Shown: in pieces, positions 6,902 to 37,508 of the stretch
How positions within the stretch are numbered: the first letter of the stretch is position 1
Layout: each line of letters starts with the position of its first letter
Assembly: GCA_964633225.1 (NCBI GenBank)
Contig: CAZWFQ010000001.1
Coordinates: 27,001-91,000 of the forward strand
DNA length: 64,000 nt
From: an uncultured Anaerolineaceae bacterium
GTDB lineage: Bacteria; Chloroflexota; Anaerolineae; Anaerolineales; UBA4823
Reading direction: 5' to 3'
Translations under genes and position numbers: made by a program
The notes under the pieces: generated by a model
Told to the model about the DNA's origin: nothing
The model's input: only the letters and a program-made list of their open reading frames with translations
Databases searched by the model: none

Positions 6902-6911
6902 AGTCTCTCCT

Positions 6912-7991: not shown

Positions 7992-8018
7992 GTCATCTCC
8001 TTTTGGGTGACCTGCTGG

Positions 8019-14512: not shown

Positions 14513-15331
14513 TTACTTGTTGCAGAATAGTGTATTGTAATCCACCTTGGGGAAGATCGTCAGCTTACCTCCCACGGTGGCGTCTAGCACGCGCCGTCCA
14601 TCTGCCGCATAGGCCTGGCGGGCCAAGGTGTAGGCCCGTTCAGAGCCTTCCAGGTCGGGGAGCTGCCATTTGAAACCGGCCCCAAAGTAGTTGGGGGTAA
14701 AGTGGTTGGGATCATCGCCTTGCGAGACGATGGCCTGGTTGGCCTGGCCTTTGGTTTGAAAGTTGTGATCCACACCCACCAGGATGGCCTCTTGGAAGCC
14801 CATGTAAAATGCCAACTGTAGGGCCACGTAGGTGACGGTAAGGCCCTCAAACATGCGCCCGGTGGCATCGAGGGCGAAGTTCTCGACACCTGTGAAGTCG
14901 GTGTCGAGGTAATTCAAGCTTGGGTCTTCACGGAACCAGGTGCGGGCGCGCCAGGTGATGAAGCGCGGTAAGCTCAGCCCTTGCATCTCCGCCGCGCATT
15001 GCTCAAGCACCAGGTCGTTGACCGAGACCAGGTAAGTGGTGGTGAACCCCAGCTCGGGGAAAAGCAGGTAGATGCGGTTGAGCCCAAAAGTGAATTCATT
15101 GCGCAGCTTGCCCAGGTCGGTTTGGCGCAGGCTGGGGCCGTTGCCGATGATGAAGCAGCGTTTGCCGGCATGTGCGTTGTGGTAGGTTTGCATGCGAGCC
15201 TGGCTGCGCCGCCAACGCGGATCGATGGTCTGCGCCCAAACGTGGCGCCGGCGGTTGCGCCAATCCCAATATGCGTTGGATGTGGCATTCCATAAAGGCG
15301 CAGGAACGATCTTCTTAAGGGTGCTTTTCAT
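14513..15331 (-). CDS. DUF115 / MptE-like (Maf-like) protein, candidate nonulosonic-acid transferase
   Basis: 272 aa. [17 protein letters not shown] and LVGVDHNF resemble the DUF115 family, which includes Campylobacter motility accessory factors. ATGA overlap with the upstream SDR gene. Confidence 0.55.
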
Positions 15332-16101
15332 TCGGTGCTCAAGCGGGCGGTAGCGCCACCATCCACGATCACAGCCTGGCCGGTCATAAAGGAAGACTGC
15401 ACATTATCGGCCAGGAAGTAGATGGCATGGGCGATCTCAGAGGGCAAGCCCACGCGCCCATTGACCGTTTTGCGGGCCAGGTTATCCAGGCGCGCTTGCA
15501 CATCGCCGCCTTGCACATGCCCGCGGCCCAGGCCAGCGCGCAGCATGGGCGTATCCACGGCGCCGGGAAGGATGGCATTGACGCGGATGTTGTTGGGTGC
15601 CAGTTCAATTGCCATGGCGCGCGTCAATGCCAGCAGGCCGCCCTTGCTGGCTGCGTAGGCAGCAATGTTGGCAGAGGTGGCAACCGCATGCACCGATGAA
15701 ACATTGACGATGGCCCCTCCGGCAGCGGCCTGGAACAGGGGATAAGCCAGCTTGACACTCAAGAAGACAGAGCGCAAGTTAGATGCCATGACTGCATCCC
15801 ATTCTTCGATGCTGGTTTCAAGCAGCGGCTTGGCGATCTGCAAAGCTGCATTGTTGATCAGTGCGTTCAGATAGCCCGTGAAGGCCTGGGCCTGGCGAAA
15901 GATTGATTCTAGATTCTCGCCAATCGAGATGTCTGATTCGATGAACAAACCATTGGATGGAAACGGTTCGCCGAAACTTGAGCGGTCAACCCCAATGACG
16001 CGCCAGCCGGATTCAGCGAACAACTTGACGGTGGCGCGGCCAATGCCGCCGGCAGCGCCGGTAATGAGTACGGTTTTGGGAAGTGTTTGTGAGGGGAACA
16101 T
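15328..16101 (-). CDS. short-chain dehydrogenase/reductase (FabG/PtmA-like)
   Basis: 257 aa. TGAAGGIGRAT (TGxxxGxG), NNAA and YAASKGGLLALTR (YxxxK). Confidence 0.8.
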   Translation of the reverse strand: MFPSQTLPKTVLITGAAGGIGRATVKLFAESGWRVIGVDRSSFGEPFPSNGLFIESDISIGENLESIFRQAQAFTGYLNALINNAALQIAKPLLETSIEEWDAVMASNLRSVFLSVKLAYPLFQAAAGGAIVNVSSVHAVATSANIAAYAASKGGLLALTRAMAIELAPNNIRVNAILPGAVDTPMLRAGLGRGHVQGGDVQARLDNLARKTVNGRVGLPSEIAHAIYFLADNVQSSFMTGQAVIVDGGATARLSTE

Positions 16102-16104
16102 AAG

Positions 16105-16143
16105 ATAGTAAATAGTGGATAGTGAATGGTGAATGGTGGGTCG
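16105..16143 (-). repeat. tandem heptamer element, copy b (5' leader of SDR 15328..16101)
   Basis: The minus strand reads CGACCCA CCATTCA CCATTCA CTATCCA CTATTTA CTAT and ends 4 nt before the ATG. Confidence 0.65.
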
Positions 16144-16161
16144 CCTCTAAGTGATCAGTGG

Positions 16162-17106
16162 TTATCTTTGAGAGAGGCCTAACCCATCGAGCAGGTTCTT
16201 GATGGTATTGGCGTGAACGCGTTCCCAGGCCGCCGGGCTGGAATTGGCGTTGTGGGGGGCCAGCATCACGTTATCCATGCAGCACAGCGGGCTGGTAGCG
16301 GGTAGAGGCTCGTGCTCGTACACATCCAGGGCCGCACCGGCAATCTGTCCGGCTTGCAGGGCCGCAACCAGGGCAGGCTCTTCGATGATAGGCCCGCGTG
16401 CGGTGTTGATCAGCACTGCAGTCGGCTGCATCATTGCCAGGGTGCGGGCATTCAGCAAGTGGTAGCTGGTGGGGTTCAGGTCGCAGTTTATTGAGACAAA
16501 ATCTGACGCGGCTAACAGTGAATCGAGGGTGGTCATCTCGACATCATTTTCTTTGATGAAAACGTGATCGACCTCGGCAATGTCGGTACCCAAAACGCGC
16601 ATGCCAAAGGCTCTTGCCCTGCGGATGGCCGCTTTGCCAATGGTGCCCACCCCCACCACGCCCAACCAGCACTCGCTTAGCGAGCGACCAGGGATCTTCT
16701 CCCAGACGCCTGTTTTGACGGCCTGATCCATCCAGGGCAGGCGGCGGGCAAATGCCAGCACGTATCCTAGGACTGAATCAGCTACTGGCAGGGTGAATGC
16801 ATTGGGCGTGTTACCCACTTTGATGCCCAGGCGAGCCGCAGCAGCCCGGTCAATTGAGTCAACGCCTGTGCCCCACTTGGAGATGATCTTGAGCCGAGGT
16901 GTGCAGGCCTCCAGCACGCGGGCCGTATAGTGATCGTCGCCGCAGATCGTGCCATCGAACTGCCCGGCGTAAGCCAGGATTTCCTCTTCTCCCAGGCGCT
17001 CATGCACATCAGGGACGATCAGCTCCAACCCATAGCTTTCGAGCACAGGGCGGAAGCGGTCGAGGAAGGGGATCATGTAAGGTGCAGAAAAAAGTATTGT
17101 GGTCAT
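16162..17106 (-). CDS. D-isomer-specific 2-hydroxyacid dehydrogenase family protein
   Basis: 314 aa. GVVGVGTIGKAAIRRARAFGMRV (NAD fold) and NTARGPIIEEPALVAALQAGQIAGAALDVYEHEP. Confidence 0.8.
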   Translation of the reverse strand: MTTILFSAPYMIPFLDRFRPVLESYGLELIVPDVHERLGEEEILAYAGQFDGTICGDDHYTARVLEACTPRLKIISKWGTGVDSIDRAAAARLGIKVGNTPNAFTLPVADSVLGYVLAFARRLPWMDQAVKTGVWEKIPGRSLSECWLGVVGVGTIGKAAIRRARAFGMRVLGTDIAEVDHVFIKENDVEMTTLDSLLAASDFVSINCDLNPTSYHLLNARTLAMMQPTAVLINTARGPIIEEPALVAALQAGQIAGAALDVYEHEPLPATSPLCCMDNVMLAPHNANSSPAAWERVHANTIKNLLDGLGLSQR

Positions 17107-17118
17107 CGTTTATCCATT

Positions 17119-17778
17119 CTAGCGGTTACGCAGCAAGAAATCGGTAATCGCAAAGTCGAGTTCTTCGTCGATATCCCAGGCTTCGGCCGGATCAATCTCG
17201 AACATCAGCGGGCGTTCGCCAAGCCGGTTGCGGCGGTCAAGCAGAATATGGCGCGAGAAGATGTAGAGACAAGAGTTCTCTTCGTAAACAGGGGGCAGAT
17301 CTTGGGTTTGTAGGAGGATGGCAGGGTTATGGTTGATGGCCCGGCCCAATTGATCCCACAGCCGGGTTTGCAGGCGGGTGACCGAAAAGAGTGAGTCGTA
17401 AGCGGGGTAAGATGCTTGCAGGGCCTGGATGGCGTTTGAGATGCTGCTCGGACGCAGCAGAGGGTTGGTGGAATGGGTTTGCAAGTATAGGTCTGCTTCC
17501 ACCTGGGCTGTGTCGTAAGCCAGGATCTCATTCATAGGGATGGTGTCGGAGCGCAGGTGCTCGGGCCGGTCGATCACATGCACGGTGGGAAAGTGCTGGC
17601 GCAGGCCGTCCATCACCGGCTGGCTGTCGGTATCGACCACGATATCGCTGATCTCAGGACAGGCCAGCAAGGTTTCTATGATATGGTGAAAGAGCGGTTT
17701 GCCAGCCAGCAGGCGGTAATTCTTGCCTGGAACACGCTGGCTATGGTGACGCATGGGTACAAGAGCGGTTATTTTCAT
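17119..17778 (-). CDS. CMP-sugar (acylneuraminate-type) cytidylyltransferase, copy 1
   Basis: The track ORF extends to 17922. The ATG at 17778 forms an ATGA overlap with the upstream stop and gives MKITALVPMRHHSQRVPGKNYRLLAGKPLFHHIIETL, a CTP_transf_3-type N-terminus. Confidence 0.7.
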   Translation of the reverse strand: MKITALVPMRHHSQRVPGKNYRLLAGKPLFHHIIETLLACPEISDIVVDTDSQPVMDGLRQHFPTVHVIDRPEHLRSDTIPMNEILAYDTAQVEADLYLQTHSTNPLLRPSSISNAIQALQASYPAYDSLFSVTRLQTRLWDQLGRAINHNPAILLQTQDLPPVYEENSCLYIFSRHILLDRRNRLGERPLMFEIDPAEAWDIDEELDFAITDFLLRNR

Positions 17779-18773
17779 AGCGGGCCTTGTGGATACTGGA
17801 TGGGGGGGATCTGGCGGGTGGAATTTTCGGGGGAGAAAGTCACCCCAGGCGGGTAATAGAAAGTCTGGCGGAGCTGCCAGGTGAGAGGCCCAGCGTGGCG
17901 GTAGCCTTGATAGGTACCCCAAAACTGCATCCAGCGGAACCAGAGGATGCTGGTCATAACGCCCTTATGGGTCAACTGCCCCTGGCGAGCGGCATGCCAC
18001 AAGTCGTTGGTGGCGTTGGATGTGAAGAGACGAACAAAATCCCACCAGCGAAAATGTTCCTGTGGAAAAAGGTGCTTGAAGGCCATTGCCTCACGGCGGT
18101 AGCGGTTGAACACGCCGCGCGGGGTTTCGTGGTGCACGTGCGCCACCTCGGCCTCGGCAATATAAGAGATGGCATAACCCTGCGCCATGATGCGATGCGC
18201 CCAGGCCAGGTCTTCCAGGCCAGGCAGGGTCTCATCATACGGGTATTGCTGCCAAAGGCTGCAGCGGATGGCGGCGTTGGCGTTATTGCAGAACGGGTAA
18301 GGCTGGCGCGGCTGAGAGCGGTCTGCATACCAGGCGGCAAATATTTGATGTTCCGAAAATTTGGTACTGGCGTTACCACGCTGTTTGCCGTAAGAGAGCG
18401 CAATTTGAGGGTCCTCGAAGGGGGCTAAGAGACGCTCCAGCCAATCTGGATAAATGGGGTAAACATGGGCACTGGCAATGACCACCAGTTCGTTCGAAGC
18501 CTGGGCGATGCCCTGGTTCAGCGAATAGCCAAAGGTAAACGATTCGGGGCGGATACGGACTACCTTGACCGGGTAGCGCTCAGCCACTGCCACGGTCGCG
18601 TCGGTTGAGCCAGAGTCAACCAGGATGATCTCTACATTTTTGACCGTTTGCTTTTGGATGCCCTCCAGCAAACGGCCAATGTGCTGTTCTTCGTTGAAAG
18701 CGCGAATCACAATTGAACAGGCATTAGAAGCCCCGTTTTGTGGGCTTGGTGAGCTCGCTACTTCTCTTACCAA
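17775..18773 (-). CDS. family 2 glycosyltransferase
   Basis: 332 aa. TTG start, with no ATG alternative upstream of the catalytic core. CSIVIRAFNEEQHIGRLLEGI and ILVDSGSTDAT are present. Confidence 0.75.
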   Translation of the reverse strand: MVREVASSPSPQNGASNACSIVIRAFNEEQHIGRLLEGIQKQTVKNVEIILVDSGSTDATVAVAERYPVKVVRIRPESFTFGYSLNQGIAQASNELVVIASAHVYPIYPDWLERLLAPFEDPQIALSYGKQRGNASTKFSEHQIFAAWYADRSQPRQPYPFCNNANAAIRCSLWQQYPYDETLPGLEDLAWAHRIMAQGYAISYIAEAEVAHVHHETPRGVFNRYRREAMAFKHLFPQEHFRWWDFVRLFTSNATNDLWHAARQGQLTHKGVMTSILWFRWMQFWGTYQGYRHAGPLTWQLRQTFYYPPGVTFSPENSTRQIPPIQYPQGPL

Positions 18774-19660
18774 TCGAGATCCTTTTCGTAGCCCAGTTTG
18801 ATCAGCATCTCTCCAGCTACTTTCTTAAAGATGGCTTTGTGCTCATCTGTAAAGTGCTTTTGCCAGTCGCCGACTTTGCCACTGCGGAAGGTGGGTGACT
18901 TTTCGGGGATGATGTTTCTTTCAATCACATCCATCAATTGTTGGCGGCTGATTGGCAGGGTATCGACGCGCTGCAAGAAGTGGTCGGCGGCCTTGCCAAC
19001 CGCAGCCTGGCGGTCGAGAATGTAATCTTCGAAACGCTGTGCTAAAACGTTGGGTTGATCGATCCAGGCCACGTAAGGCTCAAAGCGCTGTCCGATGTCG
19101 GGGAAATCGACCGGCTTGCCATCTGGCCCCACAGCGTTGGGCAGGCCCAGGATGCTGGTGCGCAGGCGCTCTTCAAAAGTGGTCAGTACTTCAGTGTAGT
19201 ATTTGTGATGCACGTGCTCCTGGGCGCGGTCGGTGACGTAGAAGACGTGCGAGACGACCACGTCACGGGGATCGCGGTACATAAAATAAGGCAGGTAAGC
19301 TGACTGGCTGCATGCCTGTATGGCCTCGGGCCAGGTATGAAAGTGAGCCGCAGCCACATCGCCCGGACGTAGTGTTTTGAGGTAACGCACAGCATCTGAT
19401 CCGGCACGCGCTGCGCCCGTCTCTGAATCAAAAGCTGCAAAAACGTCAAATGAACGGTCAGAAAAAGGCCCCACTTGGACAAAGGCTTCAAGCACCTGGC
19501 GTAAGAGGTTGGTGCCGCTTTTGGGGAAAGAGATGCCCAGCAGCACAGGCCAGCCGTCTTTGGGTGATGCCGCCTGGCGGTACCGCCAGCCTTGTTCCAG
19601 GCGTTTCGCGTAGTATCGAAGCCAATAAGCGGTTCTAATCGCACGATCTTGAAGTTTCAT
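18767..19660 (-). CDS. sulfotransferase family protein
   Basis: 297 aa. A 5'-PSB-like loop FPKSGTNLL and a 3'-PB-like YRDPRDVVVSHVFY. C-terminal RSGKVGDWQKHF, as in PAPS-dependent sulfotransferases. Confidence 0.7.
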   Translation of the reverse strand: MKLQDRAIRTAYWLRYYAKRLEQGWRYRQAASPKDGWPVLLGISFPKSGTNLLRQVLEAFVQVGPFSDRSFDVFAAFDSETGAARAGSDAVRYLKTLRPGDVAAAHFHTWPEAIQACSQSAYLPYFMYRDPRDVVVSHVFYVTDRAQEHVHHKYYTEVLTTFEERLRTSILGLPNAVGPDGKPVDFPDIGQRFEPYVAWIDQPNVLAQRFEDYILDRQAAVGKAADHFLQRVDTLPISRQQLMDVIERNIIPEKSPTFRSGKVGDWQKHFTDEHKAIFKKVAGEMLIKLGYEKDLDW

Positions 19661-21399
19661 GAATGCCTCGCAAGGATGAATGCGGACTTGTCTTGTCCGC
19701 CAGTTTCTTCCAGCAGGCCATCCAGGATGGCTTGCATGGTGGGTGAATTTTCAGGTAAAAGCTGTTTCCAATCGAGCCCAGCTTTGAAAATGACAAAACC
19801 AGGTAGTTTCTGTGCTTCCAGGTAAGCATCAAATGGAAGTGAGGTGCGGAAAAGTTGGTAATACAACACACGCCGGGCGTTAATTTTGAATTCGGCCGGC
19901 GGGGTAATCACCTCAGCCACCAGGAAATCCTCAGCCTGTTGGCGGTGAGCCTCGGGTGTGAGCGGCAGATAGACGGTGTTAAAAGGGGTATAGCGGGCCT
20001 TGCCGGCGCACAACACGGGCGCACCCATGATGGAAGCTTCCAGGCCGATGGACGAGTTATATACCATGACGAACTTGGATCGCTGGATCATCTCGTATGA
20101 GCTGATGTATTCAGATGGCGCAACGAACATAGCATTAGGCAACTGCTTTAATCCCCGTCTTTCAGCCCAGGCCTGAACGGTCTCTTGGCTCTCTTTTTGC
20201 GGGCGCGTCTCGTCGGGATGGGCACGGACAACAAAAAGGGTTTCGGGATGAGCCCGGATCAATTCCAGAACTTGCTCCAGCCAGGCGAACATATCAGGAA
20301 AGATGGTGTTCGCATGCACCTGGCTGGTGTCAAAGATCACATTGGTGAAGACAGGAACCAACTGCTTGAATTGGGCCAGCTTATCCATAAAAGCCTGGTC
20401 CAGGCCGCGCATTTCAGGCCAGAAGCGGATGCCAGCCATGCTGAAGTTGCCGCGGAAACGTTGTTCCAGGTAAGTGTCCAGGCGAGCATTTTCGGCTTCA
20501 TCCAGCTCGTAATCGGGCGGAATATCCATGGGATAAGCAGTGGCTTCGCCAGGAGTGAAAAAAGCTGAGAAGGGGCGCATGCCAACCTCATGTGTGATGC
20601 AAGGGATGCCACGCGCTAACGCTAAGCGGCGCGCCACCGCCTCAGGGTAGAACATGCCGTTGAAAACAACCACCATGCGCGGGTTGGTACGCTCCAGGAA
20701 GGCTGTAAACTCTTTGGCAACATTGTATGCTGATAAAATGTACTGGCGCATCAAGAAACGGGTTGGCTGATTGTCTTCTAGGTTGTGACGGCGCAGGACC
20801 CAACGCAGCGAAGGGAGGACGATCTGGCCCAACGGCAGGGCTTCATCCGTTGATCCAAACGGATAATGAAAATTGGATAACTCGGAAATGCTCAAATCTC
20901 GCACAGCGGCAGCAAGCGCTGGGTTTTGGACATAATTGAACCACTCCACAGGCTGGTGCAGCATGCGGCGGGCGTGGCGTTGGCAGGCGGCACAGGGCGG
21001 CTGTTTGCGCGGCCGGTTACGATCCGTCCCAAGCACGCAGCGGCTCATACCAGCCAGGCAGTGAAAGTGAACTACCGGCTGTCCTTGCAGACGCAGTGCC
21101 AGGGAGGTCAGCAGGTGGAAGGCATTGTTCAGGTTGAGGTTCAAAATACCTGATGAAAGCTTGACGAAAGCCACCGGGCGGCCCTTGGGTTGGGGGGCTT
21201 GTTCATTGATTTGGCGGGCCAGGTCAGCGATACGCTGGCTGTTCACCCGCTCATATCTTGAGATCAAAGCGGTCGCGCGATAGCGGCGAGCGATCTCCAA
21301 TAACCGTCTATATGTTCTTACGCTTAGTTTAGCTTGCTGGTTATCCACTTCGTTCATTTGTCTGGGTTGGGGCTGGTGCAGAAACCTCGCCTGTTTCAT
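19657..21399 (-). CDS. KpsS/KpsC/TagF-like GT-B protein (capsule-synthesis-like), paralogue 1
   Basis: 580 aa. VVRAHPDE and VMVYNSSIGLEASIMGAPVL are shared with 42200..43810 and 31663..33093. N-terminal Cys cluster CLAGMSRCVLGTDRNRPRKQPPCAACQRH. An alternative ATG at 21357 shortens the overlap with the upstream gene. Confidence 0.5.
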   Translation of the reverse strand: MKQARFLHQPQPRQMNEVDNQQAKLSVRTYRRLLEIARRYRATALISRYERVNSQRIADLARQINEQAPQPKGRPVAFVKLSSGILNLNLNNAFHLLTSLALRLQGQPVVHFHCLAGMSRCVLGTDRNRPRKQPPCAACQRHARRMLHQPVEWFNYVQNPALAAAVRDLSISELSNFHYPFGSTDEALPLGQIVLPSLRWVLRRHNLEDNQPTRFLMRQYILSAYNVAKEFTAFLERTNPRMVVVFNGMFYPEAVARRLALARGIPCITHEVGMRPFSAFFTPGEATAYPMDIPPDYELDEAENARLDTYLEQRFRGNFSMAGIRFWPEMRGLDQAFMDKLAQFKQLVPVFTNVIFDTSQVHANTIFPDMFAWLEQVLELIRAHPETLFVVRAHPDETRPQKESQETVQAWAERRGLKQLPNAMFVAPSEYISSYEMIQRSKFVMVYNSSIGLEASIMGAPVLCAGKARYTPFNTVYLPLTPEAHRQQAEDFLVAEVITPPAEFKINARRVLYYQLFRTSLPFDAYLEAQKLPGFVIFKAGLDWKQLLPENSPTMQAILDGLLEETGGQDKSAFILARHS

Positions 21400-22273
21400 C
21401 GCCTACCACGCGTCGCAGCTTGCGCAGTGAAGACATTTCGCTATCGTACACCCGTTTTACACCATCGCCAACGGCCTGCTCGGTTACTCGGATGTATTTG
21501 ACCAGCCGCTCAACCCCGCCTGGCTCCACCGATGCTGCCTGGTCACCACCCCACATGGCCCGGTCAAGGGTCACATGGCGCTCAACCATGCAGGCGCCCA
21601 TGGCAACCGACACCACGGTCGGGATCAGGCCGACTTCATGACCTGAGTAGCCGATCGGGCAGCTAAACGTGTCTCGCAGGGTGCGGATGACCGATAGGTT
21701 CAGTTCTTCTGGCTCGCAGGGATAAGTGCTGGTAGCGTGGGTAATGATCAGGTTTTCTTCTCCCACAACCCCTACTGCCGCCCTGATTTGTTCCATGGTG
21801 GACATACCGGTTGATACGATCATGGGGCGGCCTGTCTTACGTACGTAGCGCAGCAGTTTGTGATCGGTCAGTGAAGCAGACGGGATCTTGTAGCAAATGG
21901 GGTTAAATGCCTCCAGGAAATCAACGGCGGCCTCATCCCACACAGAGGCAAACCAGGGTATGCCCTTGAACTTGCAGTATTCGTCGATTGTACGGTACTG
22001 GGCTTCGTCAAATTCAACCTTATACCGGTAATCCAGGTACGTGATATACCCCCAGGGGGTCTCGCGCATGATACTTTGTTGTTCGGGGGGCACGCACAAA
22101 TGGGGGGTTCGCTTCTGGAATTTTACGGCATCCACACCGAACTTGGCCGCCATATCGATCAAGCCCTGGGCAATTTCGACGCTGCCATTGTGGTTGATGC
22201 CGATCTCGGCGACAATATACGTAGGGTGTCCATCGCCAACTTTACGATTTCCAATGGTGATTTCGCGGGTCAT
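21341..22273 (-). CDS. NeuB-family (sialic/ulosonic acid) synthase without recognisable SAF domain
   Basis: 310 aa. IGNRKVGDGHPTYIVAEIGINHNGSVEIA, DAVKFQKR, MIVSTGMST and GYSGHEVG. The protein ends ~50 aa after the TIM-barrel core, so the C-terminal SAF/antifreeze-like domain of canonical NeuB appears to be absent. Confidence 0.75.
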   Translation of the reverse strand: MTREITIGNRKVGDGHPTYIVAEIGINHNGSVEIAQGLIDMAAKFGVDAVKFQKRTPHLCVPPEQQSIMRETPWGYITYLDYRYKVEFDEAQYRTIDEYCKFKGIPWFASVWDEAAVDFLEAFNPICYKIPSASLTDHKLLRYVRKTGRPMIVSTGMSTMEQIRAAVGVVGEENLIITHATSTYPCEPEELNLSVIRTLRDTFSCPIGYSGHEVGLIPTVVSVAMGACMVERHVTLDRAMWGGDQAASVEPGGVERLVKYIRVTEQAVGDGVKRVYDSEMSSLRKLRRVVGDETGEVSAPAPTQTNERSG

Positions 22274-22300
22274 AGGGTCTCCTGTTGGAATAAATTAACA

Positions 22301-22330
22301 TTTATAGAGTGAGGATTTCATCGCAGTCAT
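22301..22330 (-). promoter_or_regulatory. weak candidate promoter upstream of the SAF-less neuB-like gene
   Basis: The minus strand reads ATGACT (comp. 22325-22330), an 18-nt spacer, then TATAAA (comp. 22301-22306). It lies in an AT-rich 97-bp gap, with GGAG 5 nt before the ATG at 22273. Confidence 0.3.
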
Positions 22331-22370
22331 GTACAACTTGGGGGTGGGTCAATAAATCGCAGGGTCTCAC

Positions 22371-23693
22371 TTAATGTGAGGCGCAAAGCAGGTCGCATAG
22401 TTCGCGCACCGCGCCGTGACCGCCCGGATACGACAGCACCATGTCGGCCTGGTCGAAGGCCGCCGGGTGGGCGTCTGCTACCACGACCGCGCAGCCCACC
22501 AGAGGAAAGCAGGGCACATCGTTGATATCATTGCCCAGGTACACCACCTGGGCAGGATCTATCTGGCGTTCAGCCAAGAGCTGGCTCAAAGCCGCAGCCT
22601 TGTCTTTGATGCCTTGTTGGATGGGCAACTCCAGCTTGCGGCAGCGAGCCGCTACAACCGGATTCTCTTCGGTTGAGAGCACCACAGCAGGGATGCCCGC
22701 CTTGCGCAGCATAGCAATCCCCATCCCATCGCGGCGGTTGGCTGCCACCATCTCGTGCCCATCCTGATCCACCCACACCCGGTCATCGGTCATCACACCG
22801 TCAAAGTCGAAGACTACCAGGGCGGGATGCTCGGGGATGGGCCGGGGGAAGGCTTTTGGACGCGAGCGGATGTCTTCTGGCAGGCCAACGACATCCATTG
22901 GGCAGGCATCTTCTTCAATCGGTCCTGGTTCGTTCTCGCCGGCCAGCGTAGGGCGTACCATGGGCAGCTCGCCTCCTTCGGATGCAAAGAGACCCTTGGT
23001 GATCAGCCACTCTGCGCGTTCCCAATCGCGCAGTGTATCAATATCAATCGTATAGTGGGGATCTATGTGCAATGGCAGGATGATGTTCCCGCTGAGAGAT
23101 GCCTTTTCCAGAATGGTGCGGCTGCGAATGGCGTCAATGTGCCCAGTCTGCCAGTAGGTTTGGGGCAGGGCCTGGCGTGGGGCGTTGTAGGGTTCGTCCA
23201 GTCCAGGTACGGTCAACAGGGGGCGCATTTGGCCGCCTTCGTCAACCTGCCACATTTTGAAAGGGTTTTGCCCCGATGGAACAATGCCGCGCACGGAATC
23301 GGCTGCCGGATGGTCAATCAGCATCTGCACAGCCTGGTCCACGCAGTTGGGCGGGCGGATAGGCGAGGTGGGGCGCAGTTGGACCACAATATCTGGCACG
23401 TAACCTTCATGTTCTTTCAGCCAGCCCAAAGCATGGGTAAAGACGGGAAAATCGGTGGTGGTGTCTTGCGCAAATTCGGCCGGGCGCAAGAAGGGCGTCT
23501 CGGCGCCGCAAGAGCGGGCCACTTCGGCAATCTCTTCATCGTCGGTTGAGACGATGGTGCGTGTTATCAGGGCCGATTGCAAGCCCGCGGCGATGCTGTA
23601 AGCGATCAGGGGGTGCCCGGCGAGCAGGCGGATATTTTTGCGCGGAATGCTCTTAGAGCCGCCGCGGGCAGGGACCAGGGCAAGTATGTTCAT
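22371..23693 (-). CDS. bifunctional CMP-sugar cytidylyltransferase (NeuA-like) / KdsC-type HAD phosphatase fusion
   Basis: The track ORF extends to 23903. The ATG at 23693 makes an ATGA overlap and gives MNILALVPARGGSKSIPRKNIRLLAGHPLIAYSI (CTP_transf_3). A ~70-aa linker follows, then ALVVFDFDGVMTDDRVWVDQDGHEMVAANRRDGMGI..KDKAAAL..YLGNDINDVPCF (HAD motifs I-IV of the KdsC/YrbI type). Confidence 0.75.
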   Translation of the reverse strand: MNILALVPARGGSKSIPRKNIRLLAGHPLIAYSIAAGLQSALITRTIVSTDDEEIAEVARSCGAETPFLRPAEFAQDTTTDFPVFTHALGWLKEHEGYVPDIVVQLRPTSPIRPPNCVDQAVQMLIDHPAADSVRGIVPSGQNPFKMWQVDEGGQMRPLLTVPGLDEPYNAPRQALPQTYWQTGHIDAIRSRTILEKASLSGNIILPLHIDPHYTIDIDTLRDWERAEWLITKGLFASEGGELPMVRPTLAGENEPGPIEEDACPMDVVGLPEDIRSRPKAFPRPIPEHPALVVFDFDGVMTDDRVWVDQDGHEMVAANRRDGMGIAMLRKAGIPAVVLSTEENPVVAARCRKLELPIQQGIKDKAAALSQLLAERQIDPAQVVYLGNDINDVPCFPLVGCAVVVADAHPAAFDQADMVLSYPGGHGAVRELCDLLCASH

Positions 23694-24328
23694 CGGTGAC
23701 CGTTCGTTTTCAAAGGGATCTTGGCCAAAAGTTGATAGCCAATTGTGGTTTTCTTGCTTGTGCTGCCCCCTGGCTTTTGGATCAGCCGAGAAACAGAGAG
23801 CAGGCGTGGGGTAAAGAGCGGGTAGGGCTGTTCCAACAGGCGAGGTTCCTCCTGCTCTGGGGTAAAAATGCCTTCCAGGGCGGTGATCAAAGTGGAAACC
23901 CATCCTGCCGGGTAGAGCATGGTGACGCCTTCTCCCTGGATGGCATGTTCCAGGGCAGCAGCAAAGCGGCGCTGATGCTCATCTGTGGCAAGCTCTTGGG
24001 TATCCTGGGTATCCCATTTCAAGATGTACCCCTGGCGGTAGTTGGAGTAGAGCGGGGTCAGCGCTGCTGCCGTTAGGGTGCTCAAGGAGACCGGTACGCG
24101 CTGGCAGAAGGCATGCAGCCGTTCGACCAATCCATCCAGCGCCTGTGAGCTGTCGACCTCCAGGCGCTGGCAGGTTTGGTGGACGGGCAGCACGGCGCGG
24201 CCATCATAAATCTGCTGCAAGTCCGACTGCCGCTGCTGCATGGCATTGATCTCGGCGGGGTCATCTGATTCGAGCAAGATGCAGATATCGCCCGGGATGC
24301 TCGGCCGGGCATAGTTTGGCTGTATCAC
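23690..24328 (-). CDS. hypothetical protein (no family recognised)
   Basis: The track ORF starts at GTG 24340. A second GTG at 24328 forms a GTGA overlap with the upstream stop. The stop makes an ATGA overlap with the NeuA-HAD gene. I recognise no motif. PVHQTC loosely recalls 2H-phosphoesterase HxT, but the second motif is missing. Confidence 0.5.
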   Translation of the reverse strand: MIQPNYARPSIPGDICILLESDDPAEINAMQQRQSDLQQIYDGRAVLPVHQTCQRLEVDSSQALDGLVERLHAFCQRVPVSLSTLTAAALTPLYSNYRQGYILKWDTQDTQELATDEHQRRFAAALEHAIQGEGVTMLYPAGWVSTLITALEGIFTPEQEEPRLLEQPYPLFTPRLLSVSRLIQKPGGSTSKKTTIGYQLLAKIPLKTNGHR

Positions 24329-25182
24329 CAGGCAGTCCACCCGCCGTCAACAACCACGTTATTGCCGGTCATATAGGAGGATGCATCTGATGCCAGGAAG
24401 AGCAGGGCGCCATTCATTTCGTCTTGCTTGGCCATGCGGCCCATCACGGTACGGGCTGAATAGGCCTTGAGGAAGACCTCATCGTGGTCATTGAACACGC
24501 CCCCAGGGGTCAGACAATTGACGCGCAGGTCGGTGCCGGCGTAATAGGTCGCCAGGTAGCGGGTCAGGCCAAGCACGCCGGCTTTGGTGACCGAGTAATA
24601 GATGGGCTTGAAGGCGGTCTGCTGCCCGTCGCGCTGGTAAAGGCGTTGGTCGGGGGCCACCAGGCCATACGTGGAGCAGATATTGATGATCGAACCTTTC
24701 TTCCCCTGGGCCAGCATCGGGCGGACGGCAGCCTGGCAGCACAGGAACATGCCGGTCAGGTTGACATCCAGGGCAGATTTCCAGGCCTCAAGCGGGTAAT
24801 CTTCAAAAGCGCCCGAAATGGCGCCGCGCTTGGCCATCTCTGCCAGTGCCGCGGGGTCGAACTTGGGATCGAGGGCTGCGCTGTTGACCAGGATATCCAG
24901 GCGGCCGAAGCTGCTTAGTGCCGTCTCGACCATGGTCTGGGTCGATTCGGGCCGGGTGACATCTGTCGGCGCGGCCACAGCCTGGTAGCCATCCTGGCGC
25001 AGGGTCGCGGCAACGGCTTCGCAAGCGGCGGCATTGATATCTGCCACCACAACCGCGGCCCCGGCCTCTGCCAGGCTGCGGCAGAACTGCTTGCCCAGCA
25101 GGCCCGGCCCGCCAGTGACGATGGCGACGCGCCCAGTGAGATCGAATTTTGAAAGAACGGTTGGTTGAGAAGCGATAGACAT
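24325..25182 (-). CDS. short-chain dehydrogenase/reductase
   Basis: The ATG at 25182 (MSIASQPTVLSKFDLTGRVAIVTGGPGLLGKQF) is preceded by GGAG 5 nt upstream. NSAA and YSVTKAGVLGLTR (YxxxK) are present. The track start at 25218 is less likely. Confidence 0.8.
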   Translation of the reverse strand: MSIASQPTVLSKFDLTGRVAIVTGGPGLLGKQFCRSLAEAGAAVVVADINAAACEAVAATLRQDGYQAVAAPTDVTRPESTQTMVETALSSFGRLDILVNSAALDPKFDPAALAEMAKRGAISGAFEDYPLEAWKSALDVNLTGMFLCCQAAVRPMLAQGKKGSIINICSTYGLVAPDQRLYQRDGQQTAFKPIYYSVTKAGVLGLTRYLATYYAGTDLRVNCLTPGGVFNDHDEVFLKAYSARTVMGRMAKQDEMNGALLFLASDASSYMTGNNVVVDGGWTAW

Positions 25183-25229
25183 GAAAACTCCAGAATTTTT
25201 GTGGTGTTCGACACTCATCGCGAGCGAGG

Positions 25230-25284: not shown

Positions 25285-26895
25285 TCATGGCAAGCGGCCA
25301 AAGATGATCACGTTGCCATAGTTAGCGAACAACGGCATGCCAGTTGAAATTTCATCGTAGGTCGCCATATCTGCGGGCTCCTGGCTGTTGTGCAGGTCAA
25401 ATAGCACCAACACGGCCTGGCCCTCCAGCAGCCGTGCTTGCATTTGTACCAGGTCGCTGGCAAAGTTGGTCCTGGCCTGGGTCGTGACCGCATCCATGGG
25501 GGTTGGCAAGACATAAGCCGATTTGCCGGTCAGCAGGAAGATTGCCCCGGGCTTGTCGGAATAGATCAGCATTGTTGACGGCAGGTCACGCACGACCTGG
25601 ATAGCGGGCGAGGCTTGCCATCCCTGGTGAGCAAACCCCCGGGCCTCCAGCCTCAGATCACGCACTGCCGTCACGCCGTCCCATACGCTGGCAAGGACCA
25701 GCCCGGTGCACAACAAGGCCAGTACCCATTTGACAGCTGCCGCTCGTTGGCCAAGATTTTGCCACAACCAGGCCAGCCCACTGGCAAATAGAATGATCTC
25801 TGGCACATATGCCACAGCAAGAATGCGGTCGTTCAAAGGTGTGGTGGCGTCGAAAAGGCTGATCGACAAAACCAGAAAACCCAGGTAGGTGAGGATGTGG
25901 GCTGCCAACACAAATGCCAGGGCCAGGCTGCCCGTCGATGGCTGTACTGCCGGGCGGCCGCGCCATTGGTGCCATATCACCCAGCCCAGCCAGGCCAAGA
26001 TGCCGGGGACAACGATCAATGCTAGCAGGCTGAACAGCCATCCCCACAGCCGGTGGGCGGCCAACAGATCATCTGGGGCCAGCCAGGTGAGCAGGTTTTT
26101 GATTCCTTCCAACAGGGTTGCCAGGGGAATAGGGTGCCAGTTGAACTGGCGGTTGCCGAGCGAACTGACCTGGCTAAGCCTCAGGTTATAGCCCATCCAG
26201 GCGAGCAGTGGCAGCAGCATACCTGCTACGAGCAAGGCCACGGCCCGCAGTGGGTTGGCACGCAGGGATATCCGGCCAGGAATAGAAGGCCAGCCTTCCA
26301 TTTTCAGCAGAGTGAACGTCAGCAGAATGGGGATGACCAGGCTGGCTCCGGCATAACGCGTCAAGATGGTCAGGCTGAGCAAAATGCCCGTCAAGAGCGG
26401 CCAACCCCAGTGCCGGCGCTCAAAACTCTGTGCCATGGCCAGGCAGGTTGCCAGCAAAAGCGTTAAAAACAGCGGCTCACTCATCAGCATGGCATAAACG
26501 CCCAGGTGCACATCTGAAACAGCCAGCAGCACTGCCCCTAATAAGGCAAAAGGTCGCGAGCCGCAGATCTTATCAATGCTCAATCCTACCAGGATGATGT
26601 CAATGCCAAACAGCAAGCTGATTGCCAGACGGCCACCCGCCAGCAGATCTGCCCCTGCTGCGCCCAGTGCTGCCAGGAGCAGAGAAAAAAGCGGTGGAAA
26701 GTGGGTGATGGGCTTTAGTTCGCCGCCGCCCGAAGTACGGACATAGCCATTGCCCGCCAGCAGGTTGGAAGCACCTTCAACGTAAGTGGCAGAGTCATTG
26801 ACCAACCCAAACCCATAGGGAGAACTGTACCATAAGGTCCAGGCGCCGATGCCGGCAACGATGAAGAGCGCAAGCAGAAATAACTTGTATTTCAT
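25285..26895 (-). CDS. polytopic membrane protein, GT-C (ArnT/PMT-like) glycosyltransferase candidate
   Basis: The ATG at 26895 makes an ATGA overlap. More than 10 hydrophobic segments. First-loop motif NDSATYVEGASNLLAGNGY is paralogous to SDSTEYIVSARTLLAGDGLG in 28901..30595. C-terminal ~130 aa are soluble-looking. Confidence 0.55.
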   Translation of the reverse strand: MKYKLFLLALFIVAGIGAWTLWYSSPYGFGLVNDSATYVEGASNLLAGNGYVRTSGGGELKPITHFPPLFSLLLAALGAAGADLLAGGRLAISLLFGIDIILVGLSIDKICGSRPFALLGAVLLAVSDVHLGVYAMLMSEPLFLTLLLATCLAMAQSFERRHWGWPLLTGILLSLTILTRYAGASLVIPILLTFTLLKMEGWPSIPGRISLRANPLRAVALLVAGMLLPLLAWMGYNLRLSQVSSLGNRQFNWHPIPLATLLEGIKNLLTWLAPDDLLAAHRLWGWLFSLLALIVVPGILAWLGWVIWHQWRGRPAVQPSTGSLALAFVLAAHILTYLGFLVLSISLFDATTPLNDRILAVAYVPEIILFASGLAWLWQNLGQRAAAVKWVLALLCTGLVLASVWDGVTAVRDLRLEARGFAHQGWQASPAIQVVRDLPSTMLIYSDKPGAIFLLTGKSAYVLPTPMDAVTTQARTNFASDLVQMQARLLEGQAVLVLFDLHNSQEPADMATYDEISTGMPLFANYGNVIIFGRLP

Positions 26896-28904
26896 GGGAT
26901 TTGTTTCACAACGCAAAATACGGCCCCATCGCGTCCAACACTGTACAAAATGGGTGCTTCGAGATGGATCTTTTGATCGGCATTGGTTCGGGTTGAGAGC
27001 AAGAGCAGGCTGCCAGAGAAGGTTTGGTCATCTTCAGGTTCAAAGCCTTCGATGACCAGGCCCGGGGCGGCATATTCTTGGGCAATTGACGGCTGGCGTT
27101 GGACGAACAGGGTTGTCCCTGCGGGAGTATTGGTGTTGACCTGCGTCATGATGTCTCGATAACAGGTCAGCCAATAATCGGTTTCGAAATGCCGGAAAGC
27201 GCCGCCGGTGCCGCCGACCAGCGCATTGTAGTAGGTATATTGGTAAGGGTGCAGCCTTACCATACCGGCAATGCCTGGCAAGGCCAGGGCTGCCAGTAAG
27301 AGAACATTGAGCCATATCCGGCGGCTGGAATTCAAGATGACCTGCAGGGCCAGCCCTGCGCAGATGAAGACCGGTGGCAGGATGAACAGAAAGTGCCGGT
27401 AGCCATCATACATTGGTGGACGCAGGACCAGGACGTAAACAAACATCAGCAAGAACCACAACAGCACGGCACTTAATGAGCGCCATTCAATGTCCTTGCG
27501 CGCGATGCGCTGTGCTGCCGCTGCCAGCCCGCCCATGCACAACGGCCAAACTGGCAGGGTCAGCGTGATTGCCAGCATCACCGGTAGATAAGTGGCTGGC
27601 AGTTGATTTGATAGATGCGCTGCCCCGTTGTAGATCACGGAAAGTATCTGAGGGTTATTCGCCATATGCTGAAGAACCCCGATCAGGTTTTGCAGGGGGG
27701 CTTCCCACAGGTAAGGCCAGGTGACCAGCATCACCAGGATTGCAATGACAGCGTAGATCACCATGCCCGCCAGGGGGCGGCGTTCAGAACGCAGGTAGAA
27801 ATACAGCACAACCAACAGGCCTGCCAACGGGCCTATGATGCGGATCGATGTCAGCAGGCCCAATGCTGTCCCAGCCAGTAGGATTGGCACCCACAAACGC
27901 CGCCAACTGTGCTCCACCTGCGTCCCGCTTACCCACCAGCCAGGCCGGGTGGGCAGGGGGGCCAGTTTTTCGCTCAGCCAGGCCGCTCTGCGTTGAAGCC
28001 CGGCTCGCAAAAAGGTGAAAGCCAGTGCTGCGATCGTCAGCACACCTGCCAGGATGGCAAGACCCAATTTGAGATGCGAGAACAAAATCAAGGCCTTGTT
28101 GGCATAGGCTTCTTCTGGCACTGTGTTGGCATTGGCAGCCAGGAGGCTGAACAGGCGGCCTGCCAGGCTCTCGGGAGAAGCCAGGTAGGCTTTGTGGATC
28201 AGCACACCGGCCAGGGCCTCGAGTTGGGGAGAAAGCGCATAGGCCCCTGCCGCCAGGATCACTCCTGCCAGGGCCATGGCCTGCAAAATGCGGCTCAGCT
28301 TTTTCCAGCGCGCTTCAGACCAGGGGGCACGCGGCTGTGCATCTGCCTCCTCTTGCGAAAGGCGGTCTACCATCCGGAACCCCAAGAAAATGGCCGCTAT
28401 GAAGAAGACCGTGAATGGGATATCCTTGGGGTTGATCCAGGCATGGCCCCAAAAAATCGGCTGGGTGCTGAAAAGGAGCGTCGCCCCAAAAGCAGCAAAG
28501 GTGTTCAGCCAACGTTGGCAGAGTGCATAAAAGAAAACTACCCCCGCCTGGAAGGTCAAGAAATTTACCAGGTGCCATAGCGCCACACGGCTGACCGGCA
28601 GGGCCCAGTCCAGCAGGTCGACCACTACCTTAGCTGGCAGCAAGTATGCTGGGCCGTAGATTTTGTGATCCGCTGCGCTGGGGCCATAGGCGTTCTCGAT
28701 GTCGAAATCCCCGCTCAGCCGCTCGGTAATGGAATAGGCATAGGGGATGGTATCAGCATAGGCATAAAATAACGGTTCATCCCAACTCAGACTGTAATCT
28801 TGAAAGGTGACCAACCCGGCAACCAGGTTGACAGCCAGCAAGAGAATTAAAGGAAAATTGGGGTGACGCGCGGTGCGAAGCACCAGAGCGCTGAACGTGT
28901 TCAT
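26892..28904 (-). CDS. polytopic membrane protein, GT-C-like glycosyltransferase candidate
   Basis: 670 aa with many hydrophobic segments. First-loop acidic motif LSWDEPLFYAYADTIPYAY. ATGA overlaps at both ends. Confidence 0.55.
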   Translation of the reverse strand: MNTFSALVLRTARHPNFPLILLLAVNLVAGLVTFQDYSLSWDEPLFYAYADTIPYAYSITERLSGDFDIENAYGPSAADHKIYGPAYLLPAKVVVDLLDWALPVSRVALWHLVNFLTFQAGVVFFYALCQRWLNTFAAFGATLLFSTQPIFWGHAWINPKDIPFTVFFIAAIFLGFRMVDRLSQEEADAQPRAPWSEARWKKLSRILQAMALAGVILAAGAYALSPQLEALAGVLIHKAYLASPESLAGRLFSLLAANANTVPEEAYANKALILFSHLKLGLAILAGVLTIAALAFTFLRAGLQRRAAWLSEKLAPLPTRPGWWVSGTQVEHSWRRLWVPILLAGTALGLLTSIRIIGPLAGLLVVLYFYLRSERRPLAGMVIYAVIAILVMLVTWPYLWEAPLQNLIGVLQHMANNPQILSVIYNGAAHLSNQLPATYLPVMLAITLTLPVWPLCMGGLAAAAQRIARKDIEWRSLSAVLLWFLLMFVYVLVLRPPMYDGYRHFLFILPPVFICAGLALQVILNSSRRIWLNVLLLAALALPGIAGMVRLHPYQYTYYNALVGGTGGAFRHFETDYWLTCYRDIMTQVNTNTPAGTTLFVQRQPSIAQEYAAPGLVIEGFEPEDDQTFSGSLLLLSTRTNADQKIHLEAPILYSVGRDGAVFCVVKQIP

Positions 28905-30595: not shown

Positions 30596-30618
30596 CAGTG
30601 GCGGGATAGAAAGCAGGC

Positions 30619-31659
30619 TTATAAGGTGATCAGGGCGCCGCGTTGGGACGATTCGAGTGCGCTCAGGGCCAGGCGCAGGGCCTGGGTGCCATCTTGCAAA
30701 CCGCACACGGGCTGGGCTTCACCGCGCAGCACAGAAAGAAAGTGCCGTGTCTGCTCCACAAACATCCAGTTGCGCTCAAAGCCTGCTGGTGGATGAACCA
30801 CCAGCCAATCTGCACTGAGGGTGTACTCGGCGAATTGTGTTGGATAATAAGGGCCATAGCTTTCAGCCTGGTGGTCGTGCCGGTAGAGGCGGGCACTGCC
30901 ATCGGCATTGTCCCAAAGGATATGCCCCTGCGTACCGGTGAGCTCAAGGGTGTGGGTAGGAGGCTGCTGGTTGTAGTCCAGGTGCACGCTGCCCAGGGCC
31001 CCGTTAGCAAAACGCAAACCGATCTCAGCGTTGTCTTCTACCGGCATGTTCAGGCCTGTGCTGCTGGTAAAAGCCCATACGGCACTGACCTCACCCAAAA
31101 GCCAGCGCAGGTAATCCAGCGGATGGGTGAGGGTGCGTACCACGCCTCCGCCCAGGTCGGGGCGGGCCGCATAACCCTGTTTATAATCTTCCCAGGGATG
31201 CCAGTTGGGCAGGTATTCGCCCCAGTGGGCTCGCGCCGAGATGGGGGTGCCGATGGCGTCCATTTCCAGCCAGGCCTTCACCTGGCGCAGGCCGGGATGA
31301 TAGCGGAATTGAAAGCCAACCAAAACTTGCCGGTTGTTCTTCTGCACAGCCGCCTGAAGGCGATCCAGCCCCTCCAGCGTGTGCGAAATGGGTTTTTCAA
31401 GGAAGATGTGACAGCCCGCCTCGGCTGCCGGGATGGCAACCTCCATATGCAGGGCGGTAGGGTTGGTGATGAAGACGGCATCTGGATGTTGGGCCAGGGC
31501 CGCCGCCAGGTCGGTTTCTACCGGGTAACCCGCCAACTCGTCATCTGAGAGGGTGGCAAGGTGGGTGCGGTGGAGGGTGATATGGGTTTCGCCCAGCGCC
31601 ACCAGGTTGCGAAAGTGGCGCCGGCCAATTGAGCCAAGACCAGAGATCAGGAATTTCAT
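30619..31659 (-). CDS. Gfo/Idh/MocA family oxidoreductase
   Basis: 346 aa. MKFLISGLGSIGRRHFRNL (Rossmann fold) and HIFLEKPISH (EKP motif). Confidence 0.8.
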   Translation of the reverse strand: MKFLISGLGSIGRRHFRNLVALGETHITLHRTHLATLSDDELAGYPVETDLAAALAQHPDAVFITNPTALHMEVAIPAAEAGCHIFLEKPISHTLEGLDRLQAAVQKNNRQVLVGFQFRYHPGLRQVKAWLEMDAIGTPISARAHWGEYLPNWHPWEDYKQGYAARPDLGGGVVRTLTHPLDYLRWLLGEVSAVWAFTSSTGLNMPVEDNAEIGLRFANGALGSVHLDYNQQPPTHTLELTGTQGHILWDNADGSARLYRHDHQAESYGPYYPTQFAEYTLSADWLVVHPPAGFERNWMFVEQTRHFLSVLRGEAQPVCGLQDGTQALRLALSALESSQRGALITL

Positions 31660-35898: not shown

Positions 35899-35938
35899 AG
35901 GGAATAGTGAGTAGTGAATCGTGGAGAGTGGCGGGTTG
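35899..35938 (-). repeat. tandem heptamer element, copy c (fills the whole gap before the SpsF-like gene)
   Basis: The minus strand reads CAACCCGCCACTCTCCACGATTCACTACTCACTATTCCCT and directly abuts the ATG at 35898. Confidence 0.6.
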
Positions 35939-37045: not shown

Positions 37046-37053
37046 GCTGGGTG

Positions 37054-37497: not shown

Positions 37498-37508
37498 AGG
37501 CTATCGCA

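Follow-up and report, generated by a model that had tools for sequence, protein, structure and literature searches.

The window analysed here, a 64,000-nucleotide stretch of contig CAZWFQ010000001.1 from an uncultured Anaerolineaceae bacterium of the phylum Chloroflexota, contains two neighbouring genes that may form the core of a route to an activated nonulosonic acid. One encodes a fusion of a cytidine monophosphate (CMP)-nonulosonate synthetase with a phosphatase, the other a NeuB-family synthase without a SAF domain. In this part of the window the minus strand is the coding strand for all genes. The fusion gene (22371..23693) specifies a putatively bifunctional protein of 440 amino acids, in which a NeuA-type cytidylyltransferase domain (residues 1-232; 22998..23693) is connected through an acidic, proline-rich linker (residues 233-290; 22824..22997) to a capless (C0) KdsC-type phosphatase domain of the haloacid dehalogenase (HAD) type (residues 291-440; 22371..22823). 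Its start codon, the ATG at 23693, forms an ATGA together with the stop codon of the open reading frame (ORF) upstream, and the N-terminus, MNILALVPARGGSKSIPRKN, agrees with the homologue starts (M-x-I-L-A-L-I-P-A-R-G-G-S-K). Since this agreement extends to every homologue, the longer ORF that reaches 23903 is not the gene.

Pfam recognises both halves of the protein above its curated cutoffs, CTP_transf_3 (PF02348) at 2.9e-19 (70.2 bits, cutoff 22.6) and Hydrolase_3 at 7.5e-8 (32.8, cutoff 20.9). NCBIfam gives a PseF-like match over residues 4-230 and a KdsC-like match over residues 292-438. With 159.9 bits the NeuA domain stays below the cutoff of the PseF equivalog TIGR03584 (205.7), and it falls far short of the NCBIfam cutoffs of the KdsB models. 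It carries the motifs PARGGSKSIPRKN, QLRPTSP and DIDT, whose residues are invariant in an alignment of 40 homologous sequences. The nucleotide and metal motifs of NmCSS-type enzymes are an N-terminal P-A-R-G-G-S-K...R-K-N, Q-x-x-P-T-S-P and D-x-D. An AlphaFold2 model of the fusion, built on 40 homologues, has a mean predicted local distance difference test score (pLDDT) of 83 and shows two well-folded domains. When the domains were submitted to Foldseek separately, the NeuA half retrieved the CMP-nonulosonate synthetases 9ftb, 6ifd, 1eyr and 1qwj (mouse), which are also its best PDB matches by sequence, and the HAD half retrieved the KdsC-type phosphatases 3mmz, E. coli YrbI and the C-terminal domain of mouse CMAS (3ewi). 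Among the PDB sequence and Foldseek matches there is no solved chain that spans both domains. The linker, which the original prediction (a first reading of this DNA) put roughly correctly at about 70 residues, comprises about 58; this is some 37 more than the family norm (homologues have 400-403 amino acids versus 440 here), and residues 253-279 are predicted to be disordered (pLDDT <50).

The fused reading frame is kept in hundreds of independent sequences, which rules out a frameshift or assembly artefact. Both Pfam domains are present in 120/120 of the best fusion matches in a collection of 5.8 billion proteins, mostly at 400-403 amino acids, under database names such as 'acylneuraminate cytidylyltransferase' or 'YrbI family phosphatase'. 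In a library of representatives at 50% identity, 29,707 proteins match the fusion at E<=0.001; the best 150 of them include 76 NeuA-HAD fusions and four in the reverse order, HAD-NeuA. About 60 genomes carry the fusion, nearly all of them metagenome-assembled genomes (MAGs) of Anaerolineae, with a best identity of 67-70% (one genome per species); MAGs assigned to Leptolinea and Flexilinea are among the carriers of the module. Judging from this conservation, the fusion is real and under selection. It is also widespread and already annotated in public databases, and the literature on CMAS acknowledges the C-terminal domain in some bacteria, so that a bacterial fusion is not new. In the four reverse-order proteins (P0261, P0282, P0286 and P0335; one has 687 amino acids with extra sequence) the HAD domain precedes the cytidylyltransferase, and the two activities were therefore joined more than once.

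The SAF-less synthase

The neighbouring gene (21341..22273) encodes a NeuB-family synthase of 310 amino acids with a KFQKR motif. Positions 1-241 of the Pfam NeuB model (PF03102) align with residues 38-273 (2.3e-75, 253.6 bits), and the elements G-Y-S-G-H-E and E-R-H align with the His-containing metal motifs of N. meningitidis NeuB. The absence of a SAF domain, noted at the outset, stood up to closer inspection. Pfam yields no SAF match in the protein even at E<=1, and the 37 residues that follow the barrel are too few for the SAF model with its 63 positions. Nor does the stretch 18500..22600 contain a SAF-like sequence in any frame. The second NeuB of the window (37509..38576), which served as a positive control, gives a SAF match with the same Pfam library. 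A hidden SAF domain, missed by Pfam or located in another frame, was ruled out by the two scans.

The synthase scores below the NeuB equivalog cutoffs (NeuB_NnaB, 246.8 versus 399.65; PseI, 203.1 versus 340.25). Its 120 nearest homologues are all NeuB-only proteins, mostly of 291-292 amino acids and 76-92% identical; the closest named relative (92%) comes from an Anaerolineales MAG. The SAF-less form is thus the norm of a tightly conserved synthase clade, and synthases of this type are common. A further SAF-less NeuB homologue, PDB 6ncs, is a barrel of similar length (290 amino acids) that scores 126 bits against the window synthase. It has AY instead of KR after beta2, so the loss of its SAF domain was probably an independent event in another subfamily. 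The window protein carries a low-complexity tail of 19 amino acids that is absent from the 291-residue relatives. The 3'-terminal 59 nucleotides of the synthase gene (21341..21399) are shared with the KpsS-like gene downstream as predicted; the true start of that gene may lie further in.

In the original prediction the missing SAF domain formed part of the argument for phosphorylated substrates. This part does not hold: the Bacteroides Kdn-9-P synthase (Kdn, ketodeoxynononic acid; Kdn-9-P, its 9-phosphate) has a SAF domain and human NANS an antifreeze-type (SAF) domain, which excludes SAF-lessness as a marker of sugar-phosphate use and makes it uninformative on this question. A Lys-Arg pair follows the 'KFQ' of beta2. 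It is common to the synthase clade (KFQKR) and to the Bacteroides synthase homologue (KMTKR), with which the window protein shares 34% identity, whereas free-sugar-type enzymes have TH (NmNeuB), TY (PseI), MF (SpsE) or AY (6ncs) at this position. In the loci fetched with the fusion as bait, a biased sample, a KdsC-type HAD gene lies within 1.5 kb of 55/74 NeuB ORFs of the KR type versus 0/7 non-KR ORFs. We propose that the KR pair (K54 and R55) might anchor the 6-phosphate of the hexose.

Several Anaerolineae MAGs with an unfused NeuA (L065 8774.., L067 2678.. and L068 8819..) have an adjoining synthase ORF of 628-642 amino acids, always of the KFQKR type. The one that was scanned, from L065, consists of NeuB, SAF and a xylose-isomerase-like triosephosphate isomerase-type (TIM) barrel (AP_endonuc_2).

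Active site and substrate signature of the phosphatase domain

Among solved structures, PDB 3mmz from Streptomyces avermitilis is the nearest to the HAD domain (53% identity, 1e-45). In the AlphaFold2 model the domain adopts a capless Rossmann-like fold and superposes in Foldseek on 3mmz and on the E. coli and P. syringae KdsC structures with target-normalised template modelling (TM) scores of 0.78-0.88 and root-mean-square deviations of 1.8-2.3 A. For a residue-level comparison, reference sequences (BT1713, KdsC and mouse CMAS) were recovered from PDB alignments and then aligned with the window domain. The nucleophile D10 of BT1713 corresponds to D296, the acid/base D12 to D298, T54 of motif II to S340 and K80 of motif III to K365, while D103, D104 and D107 of motif IV correspond to N388, D389 and D392, respectively. 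D296 and D298 belong to the stretch FDFDGVMTDD, and G387 to D392 read GNDIND; both motifs are present as first described. Motif IV deviates from the canonical GDDxxD of KdsC and BT1713, the window having G387-N388-D389-I-N-D392. We take D103 of BT1713, the first acidic residue of GDDxxD, to be a ligand of Mg2+, as in the BT1713 and KdsC structures.

Across 76 fusion clusters the nucleophile Asp, the Asp two positions further on and the Ser/Thr of motif II are each found in 76/76. The Lys of motif III is retained in 74/74 aligned clusters, the equivalent of D389 in 72/74 and that of D392 in 73/74. Position 388 is Asn in 68/74 and Asp in 5/74, and the same GN occurs in 3mmz and in the C-terminal domain of mouse CMAS. 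Since Asn is conserved across the clade, Asn388 does not represent decay. As far as the alignments can tell, the residue pattern fits a functional active site in which the metal site is a variant specific to the clade. The domain had been called apparently intact; this holds for the catalytic residues and for the specificity triad described below, but not for position 388. In the C-terminal domain of mouse CMAS the nucleophile is Asn, not Asp (NIDG; CNIDGC in PDB 3ewi), motif IV reads GNEVSD, and the residues at positions 56 and 64 (BT1713 numbering) are Arg and Ser. This domain has been reported to lack phosphatase activity and to serve oligomerisation, and the Asn at the nucleophile position is consistent with that report.

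Glu56, Arg64 and Lys67 of BT1713 are matched by E342, R350 and K353 in the window domain, Arg64 being the conserved residue that binds the carboxylate. The triad is also present in 3mmz and is kept in 75-76 of the 76 fusion clusters, whereas in KdsC enzymes position 56 is Arg and position 67 is Asp or Ser. The PDB entries 4hgq and 4hgr represent the E56A and E56A/K67A mutants of BT1713. In 2013 Daughtry et al. are said to have described the Glu/Lys pair as the mark of the KDN-9-P phosphatase lineage, and, reportedly from the same work, orthologues of this phosphatase (KDN9PP) occur fused to the nucleotidyltransferase of the pathway. The identity with BT1713 amounts to 35%. The KDN-9-P phosphatase model NF058599 gives 88.6 bits (cutoff 180), the KdsC model PRK09484 gives 126.5 (cutoff 208), and TIGR01670 is missed marginally (103.8 versus 106.95). 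By its signature the domain would thus be a KDN-9-P phosphatase, yet it is not a close orthologue of BT1713.

Gene neighbourhood and a possible phosphorylated route

Using the fusion as bait we collected 80 related loci; because of this mode of collection, all association counts given for them are descriptive only. Their conserved core consists of a Gfo/Idh/MocA oxidoreductase, a short-chain dehydrogenase/reductase (SDR), the NeuA-HAD fusion, the SAF-less NeuB and a Capsule_synth protein (KpsS/KpsC-like). The five-component module of Gfo/Idh/MocA, SDR, NeuA, a KdsC-type HAD with the conserved Asn at the metal site and a SAF-less NeuB of the KR type is seen from Chloroflexota to Actinomycetota and Myxococcota. 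The fusion adjoins the SAF-less NeuB in about 55 loci. In the window the SDR gene (24325..25218, minus strand; Pfam adh_short_C2), which we regard by context as PtmA/ElaC-like, has its counterpart beside the fusion in 69/80 loci. The protein reaches 186 bits with NCBIfam NF006619, which is under the cutoff, and its second-best PDB match is 6uh2, the search model for ElaC. The gene for the Gfo/Idh/MocA oxidoreductase (30619..31659, minus strand; Pfam GFO_IDH_MocA plus C-terminal domains), PtmF/ElaA-like by context, is found in 54/80 loci, usually abutting the SDR gene, and its product matches PDB 3ezy, the search model for ElaA. PDB searches with the two proteins returned generic relatives only and no named nonulosonate enzyme. 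Directly downstream of NeuB lies the Capsule_synth gene (19657..21399, minus strand; Pfam PF05159 at 1.1e-7), which follows NeuB in 44/80 loci. Its product, a candidate CMP-nonulosonate transferase, has a weak NCBIfam match to a glycosyltransferase of the BFO_1060 family.

The arrangement in the window has some peculiarities. An ORF of 216 amino acids (23690..24340, minus strand) between the SDR gene and the fusion overlaps both and has no Pfam or NCBIfam match. It is absent from 80/80 related loci, where the SDR gene ends a few bases before the fusion, and could be either a lineage-specific gene or a non-coding spacer. The Gfo and SDR genes, adjacent in most relatives, are separated here by 5.4 kb of extra genes (25285..30706, minus strand), which encode a PMT_2-type glycosyltransferase of 543 amino acids and two proteins of 670 and 601 amino acids without an assigned family. 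Between the KpsS-like gene and a GT2 gene there is a Sulfotransfer_1 gene (18767..19660, minus strand; 16/80 loci), which hints at a sulfated glycan.

The conserved module contains no NeuC or other hydrolysing 2-epimerase, no aminotransferase and no acetyltransferase. The sole 2-epimerase of the window, a WecB of the non-hydrolysing type, lies 17 kb away among rhamnose genes and scores 485 bits with the non-hydrolysing model versus 93 with NeuC. The lack of a hydrolysing 2-epimerase, an aminotransferase and an N-acetyltransferase in the module favours a non-aminated Kdn-type product over N-acetylneuraminic acid (Neu5Ac). Thus Neu5Ac 9-phosphate (Neu5Ac-9-P), which had been considered as an intermediate, is unlikely, all the more as a gene for the formation of N-acetylmannosamine 6-phosphate (ManNAc-6-P) is also missing from the module.

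The chemistry of Kdn-9-P synthase and phosphatase is documented (PMC6200933). The Kdn pathway of Bacteroides thetaiotaomicron (BT1714 synthase, BT1713 phosphatase and a cytidylyltransferase) comprises the same three clustered activities that we propose for the window. On a contig encoding a HAD protein 99% identical to BT1713 we found the order CTP_transf_3, NeuB with SAF (346 amino acids) and HAD, that is, three separate genes, whereas in the window a single gene encodes both the phosphatase and the cytidylyltransferase. The Bacteroides HAD is likewise a capless KdsC-type protein with Glu56/Arg64/Lys67, and the synthases share the Lys-Arg pair after beta2. In contrast, the Bacteroides synthase has a SAF domain, motif IV reads GDD instead of GND, and the short contig shows no Gfo/SDR partners.

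Closer in sequence is the putative HAD hydrolase 3mmz of Streptomyces avermitilis, which combines GND with the E/R/K triad exactly as the window domain does. The wall teichulosonic acid of Streptomyces contains Kdn, but a link of 3mmz to this polymer is circumstantial. An actinobacterial MAG of our collection (L080, Actinomycetota) has one operon with the separate genes HAD, NeuA, Gfo, SDR and a 291-amino-acid NeuB, hence all five components including a SAF-less synthase of the KR type; HAD is upstream, possesses GND and the triad, and is 51% identical to 3mmz. Since these genes are separate in L080, the linkage of HAD, NeuA and the synthase clade is kept whether they are fused or not: the three occur together as fusions, as reverse fusions and as separate adjacent genes.

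Vertebrate CMAS (1qwj, 3ewi) has the same domain order and folds, with Foldseek TM scores of 0.81 and 0.88 to the two mouse domains, and both proteins have Asn at the first position of motif IV. The window HAD domain has kept the nucleophile Asp, the Glu at position 56 and the Arg at position 64, where the mouse domain has Asn, Arg and Ser. A hidden Markov model of the fused bacterial clade gives 116.6 for the mouse C-terminal domain versus 133-144 for bacterial KdsC. The NeuA domain scores 75 bits against the mouse enzyme versus 114 against the CMP-pseudaminic acid (CMP-Pse) synthetase of Aeromonas, and is closer to bacterial CMP-Pse and CMP-Neu5Ac synthetases than to mouse CMAS. A special kinship with animal CMAS is supported neither by pairwise nor by model scores. 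Of the animal-like architecture suggested earlier, the common domain order in one chain remains; these scores show no particular sequence affinity in either domain.

Another parallel concerns the oxidoreductases. For the ElaA/ElaB/ElaC cassette an epimerisation of CMP-legionaminic acid at C8 has been proposed, in which an oxidation is followed by a face-selective reduction (PMC13656337). In the Ela and the PtmF/LegF/PtmA cassettes Gfo and SDR are contiguous with the cytidylyltransferase, as in most of the 80 related loci. The Gfo protein, the NeuA domain and the SDR of the window match 3ezy, 6ifd and 6uh2, the search (molecular-replacement) models for ElaA, ElaB and ElaC; the likeness exists via these shared PDB relatives only. 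Unlike what we propose for the window, the Ela system acts on a 5,7-diacetamido sugar that comes from a free-sugar route without a phosphatase.

From these comparisons we propose, with a probability of roughly 0.6, that the two genes encode the central part of a pathway with three activities, which leads via a 9-phosphate to a CMP-activated nonulosonate without an amino group (Kdn-type). The SAF-less NeuB would condense phosphoenolpyruvate (PEP) with a hexose 6-phosphate, most simply mannose 6-phosphate, to Kdn-9-P or a stereoisomer. The C-terminal HAD domain, to judge from its conserved catalytic and specificity residues, would then remove the 9-phosphate; the domain is probably tetrameric, with Arg350 and Lys353 of a neighbouring subunit completing the site as in BT1713. 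The N-terminal NeuA domain, whose motifs are intact, would couple the free sugar acid to cytidine triphosphate (CTP). More tentatively, Gfo and SDR may act on one hydroxyl of the CMP-sugar by oxidation and renewed reduction, as ElaA and ElaC would on CMP-legionaminic acid, so that the final donor might be a Kdn epimer; the matches of Gfo, NeuA and SDR to the Ela search models lend this circumstantial support. From the context, the KpsS-like protein may transfer the sugar to an envelope glycopolymer, with export by the Wzm/Wzt ATP-binding cassette (ABC) transporters of the locus. The original prediction had already envisaged a sugar 6-phosphate and a 9-phosphate intermediate, a view that is backed by the comparative evidence of the triad, the gene linkage and the KR pair. 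Observed directly are the architecture, the residues, the synteny and how widely the genes are distributed; the activities are all deduced from these.

Several observations weigh against this proposal, quite apart from the bait-dependent counts. The window proteins are distant from the Bacteroides enzymes (synthase 34%, HAD 35%, cytidylyltransferase without a significant match), and the HAD domain stays under every NCBIfam equivalog cutoff. Nine KR-type synthases have no HAD gene in the fetched stretch, and the KR motif is a putative phosphate binder. Asn388, moreover, takes the place of the motif IV Asp (BT1713 D103), as in the mouse domain. Together with the scores below the KdsC and KDN9PP equivalog cutoffs, and with the oligomerisation role of the inactive mouse domain, this raises the question of whether the HAD domain serves oligomerisation without being catalytic, a role suggested for its counterpart in vertebrate CMAS, in which case the synthase would use a free sugar or another phosphatase would act. 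We consider such a scaffold quite unlikely. Unlike in mouse CMAS, the nucleophile, Asp+2, Ser, Lys and the triad are essentially invariant in 76 divergent clusters, and at position 388 Asp and Asn alternate within the clade, five clusters having Asp. Moreover, the domain also occurs stand-alone and in reversed fusions within the same module, which argues for selection on activity rather than on a scaffold.

A different order of events is conceivable for the oxidoreductases. Gfo and SDR could act upstream and convert the hexose 6-phosphate into an unusual epimer that is then condensed, so that a Kdn stereoisomer would be formed from the start. The two genes accompany the synthase and the fusion in 54-69 of the 80 loci and across phyla, the best NCBIfam matches of Gfo are inositol or sugar dehydrogenases, and in legionaminic acid clusters the PtmA/PtmF homologues have been placed in the early part of the pathway that forms the precursor. 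However, ElaA/ElaC, the only Gfo and SDR pair flanking a CMP-nonulosonate synthetase that has been studied structurally and genetically, is proposed to act on the CMP-sugar, and the window trio matches the same PDB relatives as ElaABC; we hold the upstream variant to be unlikely. Very improbable, in our view, is a vertebrate-like Neu5Ac route, in which ManNAc-6-P and PEP would give Neu5Ac-9-P, to be dephosphorylated and converted into CMP-Neu5Ac. It would follow the same phosphatase-dependent logic and agree with the database names (N-acetylneuraminate synthase, acylneuraminate cytidylyltransferase), but these are automatic annotations at the family level. The WecB epimerase of the window, which might speak for it, fits the non-hydrolysing model and sits with the distant rhamnose genes. 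No ManNAc kinase, NanE, GNE-like enzyme or hydrolysing NeuC is encoded in the conserved module or in the window, and the HAD triad is of the KDN-9-P phosphatase type.

Beyond the proposed three-activity core, we can only speculate that the five-component module supplies an undescribed Kdn epimer (e.g. the 8-epimer, formed Ela-like at the CMP-sugar level) for a wall or sheath glycopolymer of Anaerolineae, and that GND is perhaps a functional metal site shared with the ancestor of the animal CMAS C-terminal domain; this extended version is possible, though we would rather doubt it.

If the core proposal is correct, the phosphorylated route described for Bacteroides, algae and vertebrates would also operate in many Anaerolineae and provide them with a Kdn-type sugar acid, and the known range of this route would be extended. 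Sludge, sediments and soils are rich in Anaerolineae, which are biochemically poorly characterised; the module would suggest an envelope polymer with nonulosonate in a phylum with almost uncharted surface chemistry. A literature search for nonulosonic acids in Chloroflexi/Anaerolineae returned nothing relevant. The fusion is a natural, active-looking counterpart of animal CMAS and could be used to probe the former role of the degenerate animal domain, or serve as a compact biocatalyst from 9-phosphate to CMP-sugar. Current concepts remain unchanged, as databases contain many proteins of this architecture and earlier work has mentioned it; of modest interest are the Asn conserved in the metal site, the KR pair as a signature and a possibly Ela-like tailoring in an under-studied phylum.

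Other glycan genes in the window

Taken together, the 60 kb have the appearance of a single large locus for envelope glycans. A second nonulosonate route is encoded at 35014..40862 (minus strand), with a PseB inverting 4,6-dehydratase above the NCBIfam cutoff (39714..40862), an RmlD-like reductase (38692..39657), a NeuB with SAF domain (37509..38576), a GT4 glycosyltransferase (35939..37045) and a KdsB-like CTP_transf_3 gene (35014..35955). No aminotransferase gene was seen next to these genes.

A third CTP_transf_3 cytidylyltransferase gene (17119..17922) stands in a block (14513..17922, minus strand) together with genes for an MptE-like (Maf-type) protein (14513..15331), an SDR (15328..16101) and a D-2-hydroxyacid dehydrogenase (16162..17106); taken singly, the four genes recur in 15-46 of the 80 related loci. 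In addition to the non-hydrolysing WecB, the locus has rmlA-D and methyltransferases. It also encodes, on the minus strand, two Wzm/Wzt pairs of ABC transporter components (794..8579 and 43807..45947), whose Wzt has a C-terminal glycan-binding domain.

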